Sequence record: OR498728.1 | From: Escherichia phage ZX4221 | DNA: 64,000 nucleotides | Reading direction: 5' to 3' (one strand) | Shown here: positions 3,591-64,000 of the stretch, piece after piece | How the letters are laid out: each line of letters opens with the position of its first letter | How positions within the stretch are numbered: position 1 is the first letter of the stretch | The notes under the pieces: model-generated | Seen by the model: only the letters and a program-made list of their open reading frames with translations | Told to the model about the DNA's origin: nothing | The model's database searches: none | Program-made: the position numbers and the translations under genes

Positions 3591-8977
<5,387 letters not shown>

Positions 8978-24292: not shown

Positions 24293-26992
24293 TTAGTGTA
24301 CTTCAAGCCAGCTTTTGCCAACCTTACCAGTACCTGTAACAAGCGTTTCTTTCTTAAGACCTAAGTTTTTAGAAGCTTGTCCATAATACCAGTCAGTAAC
24401 TGCTTTCACATCTGCCGTCATACTCTCTGGACATTCCCAACTCGTCTCGTCGTGATATGCGCAGAGCAAACGAGCACCAATAGCTGGTTGACGACCATTC
24501 AACTTCATCAAACCTTCGTCAATCATACGACGACAAGCAAGGTTAATCGCCTCATTTTGAATCTGAGCCTCTGAACCCATTAGCAAATAATTCAATAACT
24601 TATGTGGAGATTTACACCACAACCAAGCTCCAGCAACCCTTACAAAACCCCCTTTAGAGATTGCAGCAGTTTTACCAAACACCTCTTCAAGTGCCTTTTT
24701 AGTTGCTTTGTAGTCAGCTTCCAAGTCATCTAGCAACTTCTTAATTTTAGGCAAACGAATAAAGTAAGTCTGTTTAGTCAGTGCACCTTCCTGAGTAGTT
24801 GCAGCTTTAATCGTCTTAGCAAACTTCTCATCACCTGCACCGAACAGTAGTGCATAGATACCATTCTTAGCTTTCTTACGGCCCTTGCTAATCTCATGGA
24901 GAAGGTTCTCATCCTGAGTAGCTCGACAAGTCAAGATATCCTGCTCATCATTCAAGCTAAAGTAAATACTGTTCAGTGTGTGTGCATCAGTCCCTGAATA
25001 GACAACGTAAAGGTCGTTCTCAGAGTCATAGCGAAGGTACTTATCAATCTCTGGGTTGAGGTACTCATCAAAGTGTTTGCAGTAATAGCGTCCATCTTCT
25101 TGACGAATAAACTCAATCTCTTCTTTACCTTGCGTTACCGCTTTGGTGAAGTCTTTGTCACCCATAAAGTTACAAAGAAGAACTAGCTGGGCTGAGTTCA
25201 TGTCTACAGAGACAACGTTAGTACCTTCCTCACAAATCCATACTGCCCTCATTGGTTCCCCATAGACAGCAGCACCAGACGGTACGTTTACAATACCATA
25301 CTGTGTCATACGTCCAGTTGAAGTACCAAATACCATTGCACCAGCACTAAGGCGACCATCTGGACGAATCTGGTTCAACCAACCTTTTTCATCATCCTTT
25401 GAGTTCTCAATAGTTCTGCGTCGGTGCATCAAGGTATAGTACTTAGCAATCTTCTGTCCAAGCTCACCTTCAATCGTATCATAAGATGATTCAGTAAGTT
25501 TTGGTGAAGTACGGATTAAGCAAGGCTCAAGCAAATCTGTGTACTTCTTCACAGACCAGTTATGCTCAATGTATTGGACACCTTCATGTTCAACATAACT
25601 CAAACCACACCGTTCAACCATCTCCTGCCACTTAGGATGCTTGGTAATCATCTTTTTGTTGTCTTTGAAACGACAAACCTTAACAGGACGACCATCTGAG
25701 TCTTTCTTGTAGTTCCAGTCATCTGGAATCCAACCAACTGATTTCAAGTAGTCTTTAACAACTGCTACCTGAGTCATACGAGAAACTTCGAACTCAATTG
25801 GTGTATATGGTGCATCAATCAAACCTGTGTAGCGACTTGACTCAAGTTCAAAGTGGTTAACAACATGACTGTTATAGTACTTCACAGTCTTAACTGTTTT
25901 TACTGGCTTCCAGTCTTTGCACTTCTTACCAATCTTTGCATTCAACTCATTGCAAATTGCACGAGCATCCTTCATTGCTACAAAACCTTCCTTGTACTCT
26001 TCACCAGTTACAGAGTTGGTTGGGGTATAGCAATTCCGCTTTTCAATGTTAAAAATCTTGGTAGTTGGTTTACCAAATGGCTTGATTTCATATGTCTGCA
26101 TCTCACCGTTACGTACCTGTTGACGATACTTTGTCTTAGGGTACTTGGTAATTCTTTTCAGTCCATCTGCATGACCAAACGCTTCAACATACTCATTCCA
26201 AGCTTTTGCAAACTCTTCTCCAGTAACTTTACCTTTGGTTTTAATAGTTGGAGGAAGATGTGGTTCAACTTCTGAAGCAAGCTCATTAGTCAACTTGTCA
26301 AGTTCCTTTACATGGAACTCCATAAGCTCTTTATCAGCTTTCCAACCATTGATAGCCTGTTGACTCATCCAGAAAGATGTTTCTTTAGCTCGCATGTAGG
26401 TTTCATAAGTATCTACGCCACACTTCTTCAGCTTGAGATATTCATTATCCAGTGCACGTTTAGTTTTGGCGTTAATACGAATATCCTCTACGACACGAGT
26501 GAAGATTTCTGCATTCCACACACCCCAATGTTCAATCTCTGGTTTACGTACACCAACACGAGCACCCCATGCTGCCAAGCCATGAGCACCTTTATAGCCC
26601 TTTGGAGTTGGTCTATCCATCCACTGAACACGAGACTGGATAAGAGAATCCTGAAAGAAATTACTCCACGGCTTACACTTTGGATTATCAAAGTTCCATA
26701 AATCAGGTGCAATGTGATTGAAAACCCACCAGTCATAACCCAGACCATTATGGATGCAAAGTCGTTTTGCCTTTAACGCAAACTCAATACCTTCACGCAA
26801 ACCACCCTTGATGTACTTGGTGTATTTGTGACCGAGGATAGGCTCATCTGTAAAGACCCATACAGGTGGCTCTTCATCGTCAGATTTATAGTCTGCGAAA
26901 GCCATTACGTGCACTTTAGTGAACTCAAGGAGTAAACCATCAGTTTCTGTATCACCAACTAAATGTAAGTTTTTAAAATCTACGTTTTCCAT
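24293..26992 (-). CDS. DNA polymerase, family A, with 3'-5' exonuclease domain
   Basis: Exo I-like DTETDGL; motif A-like VDMNSAQLVLL; motif B-like RKKAKNGIYALLFGAG; motif C-like YHDE; start placed at ATG 26992 with GAGGGAG RBS. Confidence 0.8.
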   Translation of the reverse strand: MENVDFKNLHLVGDTETDGLLLEFTKVHVMAFADYKSDDEEPPVWVFTDEPILGHKYTKYIKGGLREGIEFALKAKRLCIHNGLGYDWWVFNHIAPDLWNFDNPKCKPWSNFFQDSLIQSRVQWMDRPTPKGYKGAHGLAAWGARVGVRKPEIEHWGVWNAEIFTRVVEDIRINAKTKRALDNEYLKLKKCGVDTYETYMRAKETSFWMSQQAINGWKADKELMEFHVKELDKLTNELASEVEPHLPPTIKTKGKVTGEEFAKAWNEYVEAFGHADGLKRITKYPKTKYRQQVRNGEMQTYEIKPFGKPTTKIFNIEKRNCYTPTNSVTGEEYKEGFVAMKDARAICNELNAKIGKKCKDWKPVKTVKTVKYYNSHVVNHFELESSRYTGLIDAPYTPIEFEVSRMTQVAVVKDYLKSVGWIPDDWNYKKDSDGRPVKVCRFKDNKKMITKHPKWQEMVERCGLSYVEHEGVQYIEHNWSVKKYTDLLEPCLIRTSPKLTESSYDTIEGELGQKIAKYYTLMHRRRTIENSKDDEKGWLNQIRPDGRLSAGAMVFGTSTGRMTQYGIVNVPSGAAVYGEPMRAVWICEEGTNVVSVDMNSAQLVLLCNFMGDKDFTKAVTQGKEEIEFIRQEDGRYYCKHFDEYLNPEIDKYLRYDSENDLYVVYSGTDAHTLNSIYFSLNDEQDILTCRATQDENLLHEISKGRKKAKNGIYALLFGAGDEKFAKTIKAATTQEGALTKQTYFIRLPKIKKLLDDLEADYKATKKALEEVFGKTAAISKGGFVRVAGAWLWCKSPHKLLNYLLMGSEAQIQNEAINLACRRMIDEGLMKLNGRQPAIGARLLCAYHDETSWECPESMTADVKAVTDWYYGQASKNLGLKKETLVTGTGKVGKSWLEVH

Positions 26993-27187
26993 TTTTACTC
27001 CCTCTAAAATCATTAACCTCATACATTACTGCAAAAAATTATAAAAAGCAAGTTGACAATGTACTTGACAAGGTGTTAATCTTTGCGAAGTGGGTTTTTA
27101 CTTAAAAGGTTACTTAACAGTTTAACTATACAGATACTTTAAAACTCTTAAAAGATTATTTAATAGCTTTTAAAAAGCTTTAAAGTA

Positions 27188-27206
27188 TAACGTATAGAAT
27201 ACGTTA
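27188..27206. promoter_or_regulatory. perfect 8 bp inverted repeat (operator-like) in divergent intergenic region
   Basis: TAACGTAT-AGA-ATACGTTA; neighbouring near-palindrome AGCTTTTAAAAAGCT; AT-rich region with TTGACA boxes at 27053 and 27065. Confidence 0.4.
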
Positions 27207-27249
27207 AGATAAAAGATTAAAACTTAATAGTTACTTAAAAGAGGCTTAC

Positions 27250-29298: not shown

Positions 29299-29499
29299 AT
29301 GAAGATGAGAGTAAAAGATAATTTTAAGGTTATTGACCATCGTTTAGTGGAACTCTCATCTCTTTCCAATGAGGTAATGATTGAACGTCTTAAGAGAGTT
29401 GAATCACGAAGGAAAGAGATTGCAGATGAGATTCATGAACTGGACAAGATTGAAAATGGATTGAAGGCAGAACTACAACGAAGAGGTGCTAATGTCTAA
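29299..29499 (+). CDS. small coiled-coil protein (hypothetical)
   Basis: 66 aa. Confidence 0.3.
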   Translation: MKMRVKDNFKVIDHRLVELSSLSNEVMIERLKRVESRRKEIADEIHELDKIENGLKAELQRRGANV

Positions 29500-31477
29500 A
29501 GGTCGTAAATTGAAAGAGGCTGGTCAGTTTATTGGTCATTGTGCATGTCCACGTTGTGGTTCATCAGATGCTGGTTCAATCTACCATCATGACGATGATT
29601 CTTATTCAATGACTTGCTTTAGCTGTAACAAAGGTTTCCCAGAGTGGGATTTTGATAAAGGACAAATCGTGAGCACTTATTCTACTGGTTCAGATAATAA
29701 AAACCGTACTTTCCGTGGAATGGATTTAGACGATGTAAAAGAAAACCTAGAAGCAATGGACTTGAAAGATAGGAAGATTCCTGCAAAAGTCCTTGAACGT
29801 TTAGGTATCAAGGTTGACATTGATAGTGACGGTGAAATTGATGCACATTTCTATCCAACTTACAAACGTAATGAAGATGGCAAACTAGAACATGTTGGTT
29901 ATCGTGTTCGTCACCGTTACCCAGAAGACCATCCAAAAGAACACCTACGTGGTAAGTTAAAAGACTTTTCAGGTGGTGTTGGAGATATTAAAGGTGAACT
30001 GGCAATGTTCGGTTCATGGATTGCTCCAGAAGGTGGGAACCGACTGTTCATCTGGGAAGGTGAGATGGAATGTGCGACAGCTATCTACATGACTTCTTTG
30101 GCGATTAAAGATAAGTCTCGTCGTAAGAATTACTGTCACGTATCTGTTCCATCAGGTGCAAACATTAAGTCTATCAAAGACAACTATCAGTACATCACAT
30201 CATTTGATGAGATTTACTTGTGCTTTGATAACGATGAAGCAGGTGCTAAAGCTACCAAAGAGGCGGCTGGTATCCTACCTATTGAGAAGGTTCGTTTGTT
30301 CCAGTATCCAGAAGGTGTAAAAGACCTTAACGAATGGTGGACAAAGTTCTATAAAGAGAAAGACACAGTTCTGGAAGGATTTAAACAGCGTATCTACAAC
30401 GCACCTCGTTACTGCCCTGCTGGTATCAAGAACTTTGCAGATGGTTTTGAGGCAATGAAGAATCGTGGTCAGATTCCATTGATTCCTTTCCCAGAATCTT
30501 TCGGGGATTTGAACAGGTTGACTTATGGTGGTTATGGTTTAGGTGAGATTACAACTCTGGCAGCACCATCTTCAGTAGGTAAATCAGCATACACCCGTGA
30601 AATGATTTACACTGCTTGGAAGGAAACCGATTACAATATTGGTGTAATTCCAGTTGAAGATACCTATGAAGAGTTGATGGAGATGCTCTGTGCAATCCAC
30701 CTGAGCAAGCAGATTTCTGAGATTCCTTATGACGAACGTGATTGGGATGAATTAAAGGAAGCACACGCAGAACTATCTAAAGGTCGTCGTATCCACATCG
30801 TAGACCATCAAGGGGCAATTGACCAAGATAACCTGCTGGAATTTGTTGACTATCTTGTTAACAGTTTAGACTGTAAGATTATTATTCTTGACCCTATTAC
30901 GTTGGCTCTGTCACGTTCAGATACGGATGAAGAGGAAGTTTTGTCTGAACTATTGCGTCGTTGCAAACGCTACCAGTATGCACAGGTTAACGTCTGTCAC
31001 GTTCGTAAGAGTGCAGGTGGTCAGAAAGCTAACTCTGAAGGTGGGGATATTTCTGAAGAGGATATCAAGGGTTCTGGTGCATACTTCCAGATTTCCATGA
31101 ACAACATTCTGTTAATGCGTAACAAGGTTGACCCAGACCCTGTTAAGAAAAACTTGACAAAAATCAAGTTAACTAAGTGTCGTCGTCATGGTAAGTCAAC
31201 AGGTATTGCTGGACACACTTGGTACAATCCAGATACAGGCCGCCTTATCAAAGCTTCTGGATGTGGTGTTGACATTGATGGTGCAGCAGAAAATATCCGT
31301 CAACAGTTTGGCATTGGTGAAGCTGAAGACCATTACGATGACTCTTTACCTCATTATGAGGATGAAGTGTTTGACCGTGAGACTGGTGAAGTCTATACTG
31401 AAGAACAGCGTCAAAGCTCAACGATTCCACCTGTATTAAGTGAGGATGCAGATGACTGCCCGTTCGAAACTGAGTGA
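29486..31477 (+). CDS. DNA primase-helicase (T7 gp4-like)
   Basis: N-terminal Zn-binding CACPRCG...CFSCNKG; TOPRIM-like LCFDNDEAG; Walker A AAPSSVGKSAY. Confidence 0.8.
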   Translation: MLMSKGRKLKEAGQFIGHCACPRCGSSDAGSIYHHDDDSYSMTCFSCNKGFPEWDFDKGQIVSTYSTGSDNKNRTFRGMDLDDVKENLEAMDLKDRKIPAKVLERLGIKVDIDSDGEIDAHFYPTYKRNEDGKLEHVGYRVRHRYPEDHPKEHLRGKLKDFSGGVGDIKGELAMFGSWIAPEGGNRLFIWEGEMECATAIYMTSLAIKDKSRRKNYCHVSVPSGANIKSIKDNYQYITSFDEIYLCFDNDEAGAKATKEAAGILPIEKVRLFQYPEGVKDLNEWWTKFYKEKDTVLEGFKQRIYNAPRYCPAGIKNFADGFEAMKNRGQIPLIPFPESFGDLNRLTYGGYGLGEITTLAAPSSVGKSAYTREMIYTAWKETDYNIGVIPVEDTYEELMEMLCAIHLSKQISEIPYDERDWDELKEAHAELSKGRRIHIVDHQGAIDQDNLLEFVDYLVNSLDCKIIILDPITLALSRSDTDEEEVLSELLRRCKRYQYAQVNVCHVRKSAGGQKANSEGGDISEEDIKGSGAYFQISMNNILLMRNKVDPDPVKKNLTKIKLTKCRRHGKSTGIAGHTWYNPDTGRLIKASGCGVDIDGAAENIRQQFGIGEAEDHYDDSLPHYEDEVFDRETGEVYTEEQRQSSTIPPVLSEDADDCPFETE

Positions 31478-57005: not shown

Positions 57006-57093
57006 AGTACTTTACAGGGGGCTTAAAAGTTGATATCTTAAGCCCCAGATAAAGAGCTTTACTAAATTAACCCTTAAACTAGGAGATTCAAAA
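57003..57093 (+). repeat. intergenic cassette type A (hairpin GGGGCTTAA..TTAAGCCCC + conserved RBS)
   Basis: AAGTACTTTACAGGGGGCTT...AGCCCCAGATAAAGAGCTTTAC...TAAACTAGGAGATTCAAAAATG. Confidence 0.6.
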
Positions 57094-57820: not shown

Positions 57821-57908
57821 TAAAGTACTTTACAGGGGGCTTAAAAGCTGATATCTTAAGCCCCAGATAAAGAGCTTTACCACTAAATCCTAAACTGGAG
57901 ATTCAAAA
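57821..57908 (+). repeat. intergenic cassette type A
   Basis: same cassette with variant hairpin loop. Confidence 0.65.
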
Positions 57909-61969: not shown

Positions 61970-62060
61970 TTGCAATCAGATATCAAAACAAGTAAATTAC
62001 TAATCAACGGGAGGGAATGACCTTCCCCACTAAGTAAAGTCCTAAACTGGAGAATCTAAA
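61970..62060 (+). promoter_or_regulatory. intergenic cassette type B: promoter TTGCAA-17-TAAATT + leader hairpin + RBS
   Basis: -35 61970-61975, -10 61993-61998; extra TTGACA boxes and a CCCC/GGGG hairpin at 61873-61900. Confidence 0.55.
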
Positions 62061-62591: not shown

Positions 62592-62657
62592 ATTGTCAAT
62601 CAACGGGGAGGGAATGACCTTCCCCACTAAGTAAAGTCCTAAACTGGAGATTCAAAA
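62566..62657 (+). promoter_or_regulatory. intergenic cassette type B: promoter TTGACG-17-TAAATT + leader hairpin + RBS
   Basis: -35 62566-62571 (inside 3' end of upstream gene), -10 62589-62594, hairpin 62605-62625. Confidence 0.6.
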
Positions 62658-62906
62658 ATGGCAACTATCCGCGCAATTGTAAATTCTTATGGCTGCTACA
62701 CTCTGGACGTTAAATTTGATATAGGTGGGACTGATGAGTGTTTCGAACTGGTGAAGACAGTCATTAAACAAGTTATCCCAGACTATAACCCTACTGATGA
62801 CTTCTGGAAAGATGCAGTAAAAGAGGCGCTGAACGATGAATATCATTACCATTATTGGGGTGATTTGATTGTCTCCCTGTACTACAATAAACAAGGTTGC
62901 AACTAA
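62658..62906 (+). CDS. small early protein (hypothetical)
   Basis: 82 aa. Confidence 0.45.
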   Translation: MATIRAIVNSYGCYTLDVKFDIGGTDECFELVKTVIKQVIPDYNPTDDFWKDAVKEALNDEYHYHYWGDLIVSLYYNKQGCN

Positions 62907-62915
62907 TCGACGCAA

Positions 62916-62995
62916 CGGGGCTAAATAGCCCCAGATACCTTTACAGCCCCTTTATATAGATTCGATAGAGTCTATCTCATAGGGGCTTTTTTACG
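62916..62995 (+). terminator. compound hairpin/terminator at end of small-gene cluster
   Basis: GGGGCTAAATAGCCCC, then CCCCTTTATATAG...CTCATAGGGGC followed by TTTTTT. Confidence 0.45.
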
Positions 62996-63399
62996 TCCTA
63001 TCAAATCCCTTATACAACCCTTTCCCTTTCCTTTCCAGAATCTTACTAGACCTTAAAAAGCAATAACTCTATAGCTTACTCTATAGCCTTTTATTAAATC
63101 AACTTAAATATAAGCCCATAACCCGAAAGGGAAGGGCAACCATTAATTGGTATTGTTACCAATCCCTTAAACGCTCTATAAAGCCCTATAACGGCCTTAT
63201 TAACCTAACTTAAGGGATTGCATTACCTCACTCTAAAAAGCCCTTTATAGAGCTTTCTAGAGCCTTAAAAGAATCTTATAAGGGTGTGAGCTTTATCATC
63301 TCGTTAGAATTCTTGTGAATAACTAAACAACCCCTTGATAGTCACTAAAAAGTGTGTTATAGGGGCTTTAAAGTTACTTTGAAGTAGCTTAAAAGTTAC

Positions 63400-63990
63400 G
63401 TAAATGCTAGCCCCCTTAACATTTTCTTAACAATTTCTTAACAACCCCTACATAGTTATGCTTTTAAGGCACTTGTTAGCAACTTGTTAGCCCCTTGTTA
63501 AATATCTGTTAAGACCACGTAAAAGCCTTGTAAGAGTCTTTAGCATAGCCTTTAAAGCCTCTGTAAAGCCCTATAAAGAGGTGTTTGTATAGTTGGGGTG
63601 TAATTACTAGGAAGAGACTTAAAAGAGCTTACAAAGAGCTATAGAGAGCTTTTAAGAGGGCTATTTAGAGAATCACTAAGAGGGAAAGGGAACGATAAGA
63701 AAAGAGATAGTGACCATGTTAATAGCTTGTTAAAAAGATTAAACACTTGTTAGGAACTTGTTAATTATCTTAACAAAATAACTCTTAAAAATTAACTTGT
63801 TAGCTCTTGTTAGTCATCTGTTAAGACTCTGTAAAGTCTATGTATCAACTGTTAAGAACTTGTTACACCCTTGTTAGTTCTGTTAAGAATCTGTTAAGAC
63901 CTCTGAAGAGATGTTAAGAGGATGTAGTAGCTGTTAAGAGATTGTTAAGGATATTTTAAAATTCTGCAAAGTACTTGTAAGGGAGCTGTT
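63400..63990. repeat. dense array of degenerate heptamer repeats (CTTGTTAG / CTGTTAAG / TTGTAAG)
   Basis: about 20 copies in about 590 bp; no ORF of 60 aa or more on either strand from 62916 to 64000. Confidence 0.6.
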
Positions 63991-64000
63991 AAGGGCTACC

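Follow-up and report, generated by a model that had tools for sequence, protein, structure and literature searches.

The 64,000-nucleotide stretch of Escherichia phage ZX4221 (sequence record OR498728.1) that was analyzed here, termed the window, ends in a gene-free region at positions 62916 to 64000 that is densely packed with short repeats. The final plus-strand gene of the window has its stop at 62906, and the sole open reading frame (ORF) of at least 30 amino acids beyond it comprises 35 amino acids (63639 to 63746, minus strand), in agreement with a preliminary description of the sequence, which had found no ORF of at least 60 amino acids. Judged by homology to relatives with mapped ends, this region is very probably the right physical end of a Felixounavirus genome, composed of a terminator, about 415 bp of unique subterminal DNA, and one copy of a 591-bp noncoding direct terminal repeat (DTR). 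The features assigned on this basis are as follows.

62917 to 62993, plus strand: rho-independent terminator with two hairpins and a U run, closing the last plus-strand operon
62994 to 63409, no strand assigned: unique right subterminal segment with 16 CT-N4-AG boxes, mostly of the CTATAAAG, CTTTATAG, and CTTAAAAG types
63410 to 64000, no strand assigned: right copy of the 591-bp DTR with 29 CT-N4-AG boxes, mostly CTTGTTAG and CTGTTAAG
63410 to 63443, minus strand: left DTR boundary GCCCCCTTAACA, then three tandem TGTTAAG boxes at 11-bp spacing
63472 to 63513, plus strand: first plus-strand run of four YTGTTAR boxes at 11-bp spacing
63755 to 63802, no strand assigned: most AT-rich stretch of the DTR, with at least 85% A+T over 40 bp
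63796 to 63949, plus strand: main plus-strand array of 10 TGTTAA/G boxes plus CTGTAAAG, CTCTGAAG, and ATGTAGTA variants in steps of 9 to 12 bp
63987 to 64000, plus strand: right terminus TGTTAAGGGCTACC, including the last base of the genome

Homology to mapped direct terminal repeats

The region matches 256 phage records at 86 to 92% identity, nearly all of them from Felixounavirus (Felix O1-like myophages) with Escherichia, Salmonella, or Shigella as hosts. For Felix O1 itself, "short terminal repeats" were deduced solely from a size difference (PMC3185647). PhageTerm analyses have assigned DTRs of 581 bp to Pr103Blw (PMC8303462) and of 613 bp to Ro111lw (PMC6454146), as well as DTRs in further phages including D4, I14.1, E9, and H12 (PMC11737134). 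In the GenBank record of Pr103Blw (MW481326), positions 1 to 581 and 87841 to 88421 are identical and annotated as "short direct terminal repeat region"; the first and last 581 bp of the D4 record are 100% identical as well. Both repeats begin with GCCCCCTTAACATTTTC, which opens with GCCCCCTTAACA, and end with GTTAAGGGCTACC. The window shows GCCCCCTTAACA from position 63410 onward and closes with GGGCTACC at its last base, 64000. The 591 bp delimited in this way align over positions 1 to 591 with positions 1 to 581 of Pr103Blw (88% identity) and of D4 (92% identity). The Pr103Blw repeat is thus a full-length homologue that agrees with the window copy in its first and last bases as well as in its unique flanks; identity to many other relatives amounts to 92 to 95%.

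At least 80% of the DTR is covered in 243 of 251 matching phage records, and these 251 records hold 278 places, i.e., 27 beyond one per record. Among the matches listed, six records have two places and the others a single copy, which is internal and located between the same unique flanks; where records with two places were checked, the copies lie at the record ends. The records of ECP2307, CRP22, E9, H12, and pEP20 begin or end at the DTR boundaries, and that of GE_vB_7A does so within 6 and 2 nt; ECP2307, CRP22, pEP20, and GE_vB_7A come from other depositors. The length of 591 bp falls within the range of 569 to 638 bp seen in relatives, which differ in units of roughly 11 bp. A packaging or terminal region was one of three roles suggested in the preliminary description, and it is this one that held, given the end-to-end homology to a mapped DTR and the fact that the window stops on the last base of the repeat. 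We infer that the source record preserves the physical genome ends as deposited and that the window represents its rightmost 64 kb.

Collection searches with the region returned only Ounavirinae-type records and one mislabeled Staphylococcus record. GenBank GU169904, the 147-kb record of Staphylococcus phage SA1, carries Felix O1-like DNA that includes the last gene and a DTR homologue and is probably a chimeric or contaminated assembly.

Fine structure of the region

The terminator consists of a first hairpin (GGGGCU-AAAU-AGCCCC, 62917 to 62932) and a long second one (AGCCCCU...AGGGGCU, 62945 to 62987) that is followed by the U run. Its RNA fold was calculated at -36 kcal/mol (z = -5.97 versus shuffled sequences), and a counterpart site is annotated in Maleficent and wV8. 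Within the unique right subterminal segment, a CCCTTT tract occupies positions 63018 to 63036 and a conserved CCCGAAAGGGAAGGGC hairpin positions 63122 to 63137, while the invariant GTTACGTAAATGCTA (63395 to 63409) forms the last part of the segment and abuts the repeat boundary. The preliminary description had correctly let a CCCTTTCCCTTTCC tract begin at 63018; a second tract, GGGAAAGGGAA, which it had located at 63672 to 63682, is actually found at 63682 to 63692. A pairing of the CCCTTT and GGGAAAGGGAA tracts was rejected, as CCCTTT is variable or missing in several relatives and the two do not covary.

Inside the DTR, the minus-strand TGTTAAG triplet (63415, 63426, and 63437) points outward to the left cut site, and the main plus-strand array points to the right one. 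A 38-nt inverted repeat with 82% complementarity links positions 63416 to 63453 with positions 63922 to 63959 in the distal part of the main array. TGTTAAGGG occurs four times in the window, and two of these copies, in inverted orientation, lie 3 nt and 5 nt inside the two DTR boundaries. The AT-rich stretch at 63755 to 63802 is among five places in the window with such a composition. In relatives represented in concatemer form, the right terminus is directly followed by the invariant AAGCAGATATACA.

Composition, spacing, and polarity of the boxes

The motif families listed separately in the preliminary description are all variants of a single 8-bp skeleton, CT-N4-AG, examples being CTTGTTAG, CTGTTAAG, CTGTAAAG, CTATAAAG, CTTTAAAG, CTTAAAAG, and CTATAGAG, among others. 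The skeleton is present in 47 copies in 1,085 bp, whereas 8.2 ± 2.6 copies (maximum, 16) were expected from 1,000 dinucleotide-preserving shuffles; CT-N3-AG and CT-N5-AG occur twice each compared with about 8 expected copies. The repeats are therefore far above chance, and the case for a dense array is stronger than initially stated. Their spacing, which had been described as irregular, follows multiples of about 11 bp: box-to-box distances peak at 10 to 12, 21 to 23, 31 to 34, and 42 to 45 bp, corresponding to a period of approximately 10.8 to 11.2 bp. With respect to A/T versus G/C periodicity near 11.2 bp, the region ranks within the top 1% of the window, but as an independent signal for the array this periodicity is weak.

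Boxes do occur elsewhere in the window, as a motif search outside the region revealed, but they are concentrated about 20-fold at the terminus, where 25 phased pairs (9 to 13 bp apart) fall into 1.1 kb, compared with 67 pairs in the other 62.9 kb. For individual motifs, 13 of the 42 window matches to TGTTAAG are located in 63415 to 63993, 10 of 21 to CTTGTTA in 63472 to 63876, and 6 of 15 to CTATARAG in 63067 to 63646. The TGTTA-type boxes of the DTR are polar: apart from the left minus-strand triplet, the plus strand carries 19 of 23, which face the right boundary, so that boxes point outward at both DTR ends.

The concatemer junction and its conservation

In circularly assembled relatives, the DTR and both of its flanks make up a gene-free gap of 1.6 to 1.7 kb, which in Shy, mio, momo, Felix O1, SUSP1, and Maleficent lies between convergent operons. 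Plus-strand genes end on one side, and minus-strand genes direct their 3′ ends inward on the other; the annotated flanking genes encode small hypothetical proteins and carry no replication annotation. A minus-strand terminator was found on the far side in Shy, and terminators on both sides are annotated in Maleficent. The complete junction of Shy contains 17 boxes in its right-unique, 28 in its DTR, and 19 in its left-unique part. No ORF in the gap is conserved between Shy, Felix O1, and Maleficent, and hidden small genes were rejected on this ground. A noncoding RNA was likewise discarded, since no Rfam family matches the junction; the only hit, Phe_leader, scored 26 bits (gathering score, 55; E = 0.69) and falls on the terminator of the neighboring gene.

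This arrangement also bears on the suggestion that the region is a multi-promoter control region for phage or host RNA polymerase. Some boxes resemble A/T-rich -10 hexamers and a few weak sigma-70-like matches exist, but such sites occur at chance level (6 versus 4.6 expected and 8 versus 6.5 expected), and both flanking gene sets point inward and end in terminators, leaving no downstream gene to be driven; nor is there an Rfam RNA family match. With sites at chance and converging, terminated genes, a promoter cluster was rejected, and we regard it as hardly credible.

Conservation was assessed in an alignment of 20 junctions, comprising the window, three GenBank felixounaviruses, 13 IMG/VR contigs, Felix O1, SUSP1, and Maleficent. 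In the noncoding junction, column conservation amounts to about 0.9, at or above the level of the flanking genes (0.65 to 0.9). Box positions are conserved at 0.87 to 0.93, whereas the 3-nt spacers reach 0.77 to 0.83; in the comparison with Suspvirus and Mooglevirus, box positions T2 and A7 score 0.85 and 0.79, and the spacers 0.53 to 0.74. The junctions of Felix O1, SUSP1, and Maleficent contain 34 to 39 boxes per kb versus 8 to 10 per kb in their flanks. Junction indels, counted pairwise and hence not as independent events, comprise 1 to 3 bp or, among those longer than 7 bp, cluster at 10 to 12 and 21 to 25 bp. Because indels come in whole units, the array keeps its phase. The preliminary description had named a protein-coding gene in relatives or a lack of repeat conservation as observations that would speak against it; neither applies, since the corresponding DNA of the relatives is gene-free and retains the repeats.

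Indels of one or two whole units, together with the degenerate interiors of the boxes, are also what would be left if the array were a neutral by-product, filler arising from replication slippage of an 11-bp unit in which only the two cut sites are functional. We consider this very improbable, as the noncoding junction is at least as conserved as the neighboring genes, the boxes are better conserved than the spacers, and the same architecture is kept in four genera at 72 to 77% nucleotide identity or less.

The boundaries, ATGCTA/GCCCCCTTAACA and GGGCTACC/AAGCAGATATACA (slashes denote the boundary), are invariant or nearly so in 19 relatives. The left one is near-invariant within the genus and recognizable in Suspvirus and Mooglevirus. 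A cleavage motif common to both boundaries was rejected: beyond TGTTAAGGG..CTA and a loose C/WAGCA the similarity is too short, and it is lost in Suspvirus, Mooglevirus, and the Erwinia phages. In Erwinia phage phiEa104 (Kolesnikvirus), the nucleotide match is limited to 117 bp at the right boundary. Its convergent gap of 1.43 kb (positions 1610 to 3038 of L023) has a similar, looser layout, with 18 copies of TGTTAA and 12 of TTCTAA versus 0 and 3 in 3.7 kb of flanking sequence; copies of TTAACA stand beside a site resembling the left boundary, and AAGCAGATATACA directly follows a TGTTAAG array. From these boundary-like sequences, a repeat of about 440 bp (about 2166 to 2604) is predicted for phiEa104. 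The 12 TTCTAA(G/A) copies constitute a second box family, partly at 10- to 12-bp spacing, at the place where felixounaviruses have CTATAAAG-type boxes.

Two local features of the Shy junction were observed in addition. Relative to most relatives, Shy carries an insertion of about 52 bp (about 4775 to 4826) directly after the CCCTTT tract, part of which is present in L016 and L017. The insertion reuses ATTCGATAG and TAGAATCTATCTCATA of the upstream terminator hairpin, which suggests a local duplication. Felixounaviruses further share a near-invariant block, TTTTATTCACATATGATGGTGACCCAGAGGTTGGGACAAC, in the left-unique part (6259 to 6300 in Shy). Within this block lies a consensus DnaA box, TTATTCACA, at a distance of about 60 nt from the terminator that closes the first leftward gene.

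A second box cluster at 27 kb

A short cluster of CT-N4-AG boxes in steps of 11 to 13 bp is also present at window positions 27097 to 27241 (CTTAAAAG, CTTAACAG, CTATACAG, CTTTAAAG, and CTTAATAG, including GTTACTTAAAAG). It is situated in a divergent gap between the DNA polymerase A gene (24293 to 27022, minus strand) and a plus-strand operon leading to the primase-helicase gene (29486 to 31477). The gap contains an AT-rich stretch (27134 to 27190) and the minimum of the cumulative GC skew, with tandem TTGACA motifs directly upstream. This cluster could be an operator array or a replication origin.

The occurrence of such boxes, GTTACTTAAAAG among them, between divergent operons is the main argument for an architectural or regulatory array that is not specific to packaging, i.e., DNA that is bent or can be wrapped and to which a nucleoid protein of the host or a histone-like or regulatory protein of the phage would bind. 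Conceivable functions of such an array include protection or condensation of the ends, assistance in ejection, and silencing of the junction, with the same factor acting in the 27.1-kb region. The phasing of about 11 bp, the A/T-rich box cores, and the terminators that close both junction flanks to transcription would suit it too. On the other hand, outward TGTTAAG arrays and TGTTAAGGG sites stand right at the two cut sites, the array shows an approximately 20-fold enrichment at the terminus over the remainder of the window, and no match to a known host-factor consensus was detected: only one of the 10 sites in the window resembling the consensus of integration host factor (IHF) is located here, which is no enrichment. 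We therefore judge an array of this general kind to be unlikely.

An origin of replication, the remaining role named in the preliminary description, fares poorly. The boxes would then be iterons for a phage or host initiator and the AT-rich stretch an unwinding element, possibly in addition to a function of the DNA as a terminal repeat. The region does share with the iteron-type origins of phages and plasmids its clustered direct repeats and a nearby AT-rich stretch (63755 to 63802); relatives have a second AT-rich stretch in the left-unique part along with the conserved consensus DnaA box there, and the G+C content, at 0.347, is the lowest of the window. However, the unit is 8 bp at an 11-bp period rather than an iteron of 17 to 22 bp, no initiator gene is annotated next to it and no replication-type gene in the flanks, and the window's sole consensus DnaA box (63314) is not conserved. 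The region furthermore coincides with the maximum of the cumulative GC skew, where genes converge, while the minimum is at about 27 kb, in the vicinity of the genes for DNA polymerase and primase-helicase and of an AT-rich stretch. The skew argument is itself weak, because skew follows the direction of transcription. Taken together, we hold an origin at the terminus to be quite improbable, and the divergent AT-rich gap at about 27.1 kb is the better candidate.

Comparison with known packaging regions

The closest counterpart in layout is the concatemer junction of T7, with a noncoding repeat of 160 bp and arrays of 7- to 8-bp boxes both inside the repeat and in the unique DNA on either side. 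Specifically, T7 has 11 CCTAAAG boxes at 13-bp spacing in its first 340 bp and four CCTAA(A/G)G boxes immediately to the left of its right-hand repeat; its first 400 bp contain 13 CT-N2-AG and no CT-N4-AG motifs. By PhageTerm, the packaging class is the same. Nevertheless, the two regions share no sequence homology and differ in box skeleton (CT-N4-AG versus CCTAAAG) and spacing (about 11 versus 13 bp). The array described here is far larger, with about 65 boxes over 1.7 kb, and belongs to a myovirus in which genes converge on the ends, whereas the left end of T7 bears early promoters. The resemblance is thus one of layout, not of ancestry. To our knowledge, the purpose of the analogous short-repeat arrays of T7 has never been settled.

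At the T7 concatemer junction, ATCTGTT is the core of a class II pause/termination site for T7 RNA polymerase, and three copies of this heptamer occur in the DTR (63504 to 63510, 63816 to 63822, and 63889 to 63895), each as the left part of a ATCTGTTAAG box. Felix O1 is reported in its genome paper to lack a phage-encoded RNA polymerase (PMC3185647). A T7-type pause site would therefore lack its counterpart enzyme, and the copies are probably a coincidental by-product of the TGTTAAG boxes.

Several oriented, helically phased repeats beside the cleavage site are also known from the R sites of lambda cosB and from the pac regions of SPP1 and SF6, where they fit DNA wrapped on an oligomeric DNA-binding ring. 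Those sites are few (3 to 7) and longer, whereas the present region has dozens of 8-bp boxes, two cut sites, and, by homology to relatives, exact nonpermuted ends. As a packaging region, the DNA described here is of a known kind. Published reports on Felixounavirus DTRs give the repeat length only, and in open-access text we found no description of box arrays, phasing, invariant boundaries, or subfamily-wide conservation in Ounavirinae. Literature searches for the motif strings returned nothing relevant, and the section on Bas63 in the PhageMaP study includes no result for this junction.

Proposed role in packaging

In T7-type DTR packaging, concatemers have one repeat per junction, the terminase must cut at both repeat boundaries, and the repeat must be copied for each packaged genome to have two. 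Applied to the felixounaviruses, genomes would join head to tail during replication with one repeat copy between neighbors, and right subterminal DNA, repeat, and left subterminal DNA would thereby form the gene-free concatemer junction of 1.6 to 1.7 kb. The packaging enzyme would recognize this junction and cut at ...ATGCTA/GCCCCC and ...GGGCTACC/AAGCAG, and duplication of the repeat would provide both ends of the virion DNA with a copy, in the manner of T7. Recurring with each helical turn, the CT-N4-AG boxes may serve as phased binding sites for a phage protein that builds a nucleoprotein complex, candidates being the small subunit of the terminase or a partner. The outward TGTTAAG arrays may present the same recognition geometry, inverted, at both cuts, such that a strand-specific nickase would cut opposite strands at the two boundaries, as required for duplication of the repeat from staggered nicks.

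Oriented repeated sites that adjoin the cleavage positions are expected of a terminase recognition site of the cos or pac kind, and they are present here in the outward TGTTAAG boxes at both boundaries and the TGTTAAGGG copies 3 nt and 5 nt inside them. The identity as terminus and DTR combined with a role of the boxes as sites for packaging proteins is, on balance, the reading we favor. Taken for itself, the assembly of a packaging complex by a protein bound to the phased boxes is a serious possibility, to which we would assign slightly less than an even chance. A more far-reaching version remains speculative and is rather doubtful: the 1.6- to 1.7-kb junction might be a subfamily-wide packaging platform whose approximately 65 phased boxes are coated by an Ounavirinae protein, with the outward TGTTAAG arrays setting strand-specific nicks at the two boundaries, and the same factor might act at the box cluster at about 27.1 kb.

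Several points weigh against the favored reading. Regarding the terminus, the window holds one genome end, and the identity of two ends was seen in the relatives D4 and Pr103Blw. The relative SEP1 is said to use pac-type headful packaging with heterogeneous ends (PMC13431587), a report that is outweighed by the evidence for a DTR but not explained by it. Regarding the boxes, no protein is known to bind them, and the terminase genes are probably outside the window; none was found among its ten largest ORFs. The A/T versus G/C periodicity is not unique, as several coding windows at 60 to 62 kb score similarly. Insertions at most loci near the genome ends of T7 are tolerated (bioRxiv 10.1101/2024.10.10.617714), and arrays of this type therefore need not be essential for packaging. 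Finally, similar boxes form the short cluster at 27097 to 27241, a promoter-leader region, so the binding factor may not be specific to packaging.

Additional observations in the window

Near-identical intergenic cassettes of two families are found between small genes upstream of the region, at 57006 to 57065 and 57826 to 57885 and at 62001 to 62055 and 62597 to 62650. In each cassette, a conserved leader and a ribosome-binding site follow a G+C-rich hairpin (GGGGGCTTAAAAG...CTTAAGCCCC, or GGGGAGGGAATGACCTTCCCC). The two families probably correspond both to the "cassettes" of the preliminary description and to direct repeats of 57 bp described in Felix O1 (PMC3185647). The likeness of the last 40 bp of the window to the start of a type A cassette, noted in that description, proved weak and superficial. 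A 19-mer from these 40 bp has no other match within two mismatches, and the likeness rests on a common AAAGTACTT and on box-type motifs; Shy, D4, and other relatives carry GGGGATGTTAC at the cassette-like site, and the stretch is not conserved.

GATC is absent from both strands of the 64-kb window, compared with 180 ± 12.6 expected from shuffled sequences, which suggests that a host function directed at GATC, for example restriction or a Dam-dependent process, is strongly avoided. Chi is absent from the window as well.

Implications

As a phage genome end with a terminal repeat, the feature is of an ordinary kind, but its form is unusually elaborate and well conserved. Typing, biocontrol, and therapy of Salmonella and E. 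coli make wide use of Felix O1-like phages, which are now also targets of engineering (Bas63) and whose packaging signals have so far been undescribed. Exact ends correct genome orientation and annotation, as most of the approximately 250 matching records were opened elsewhere, and they define the minimal DNA for packaging engineered genomes or transducing plasmids. They also mark 1.7 kb of DNA that should not be treated as "neutral" ground for insertions unless this has been tested. For a myovirus with T7-type ends, the phased box array offers a concrete, testable entry point to terminase recognition. If the more far-reaching platform proposal were true, the junction would provide a sequence-defined model for the duplication of a short terminal repeat in a myovirus, and a box-binding factor acting at about 27.1 kb might couple replication or early transcription to packaging.

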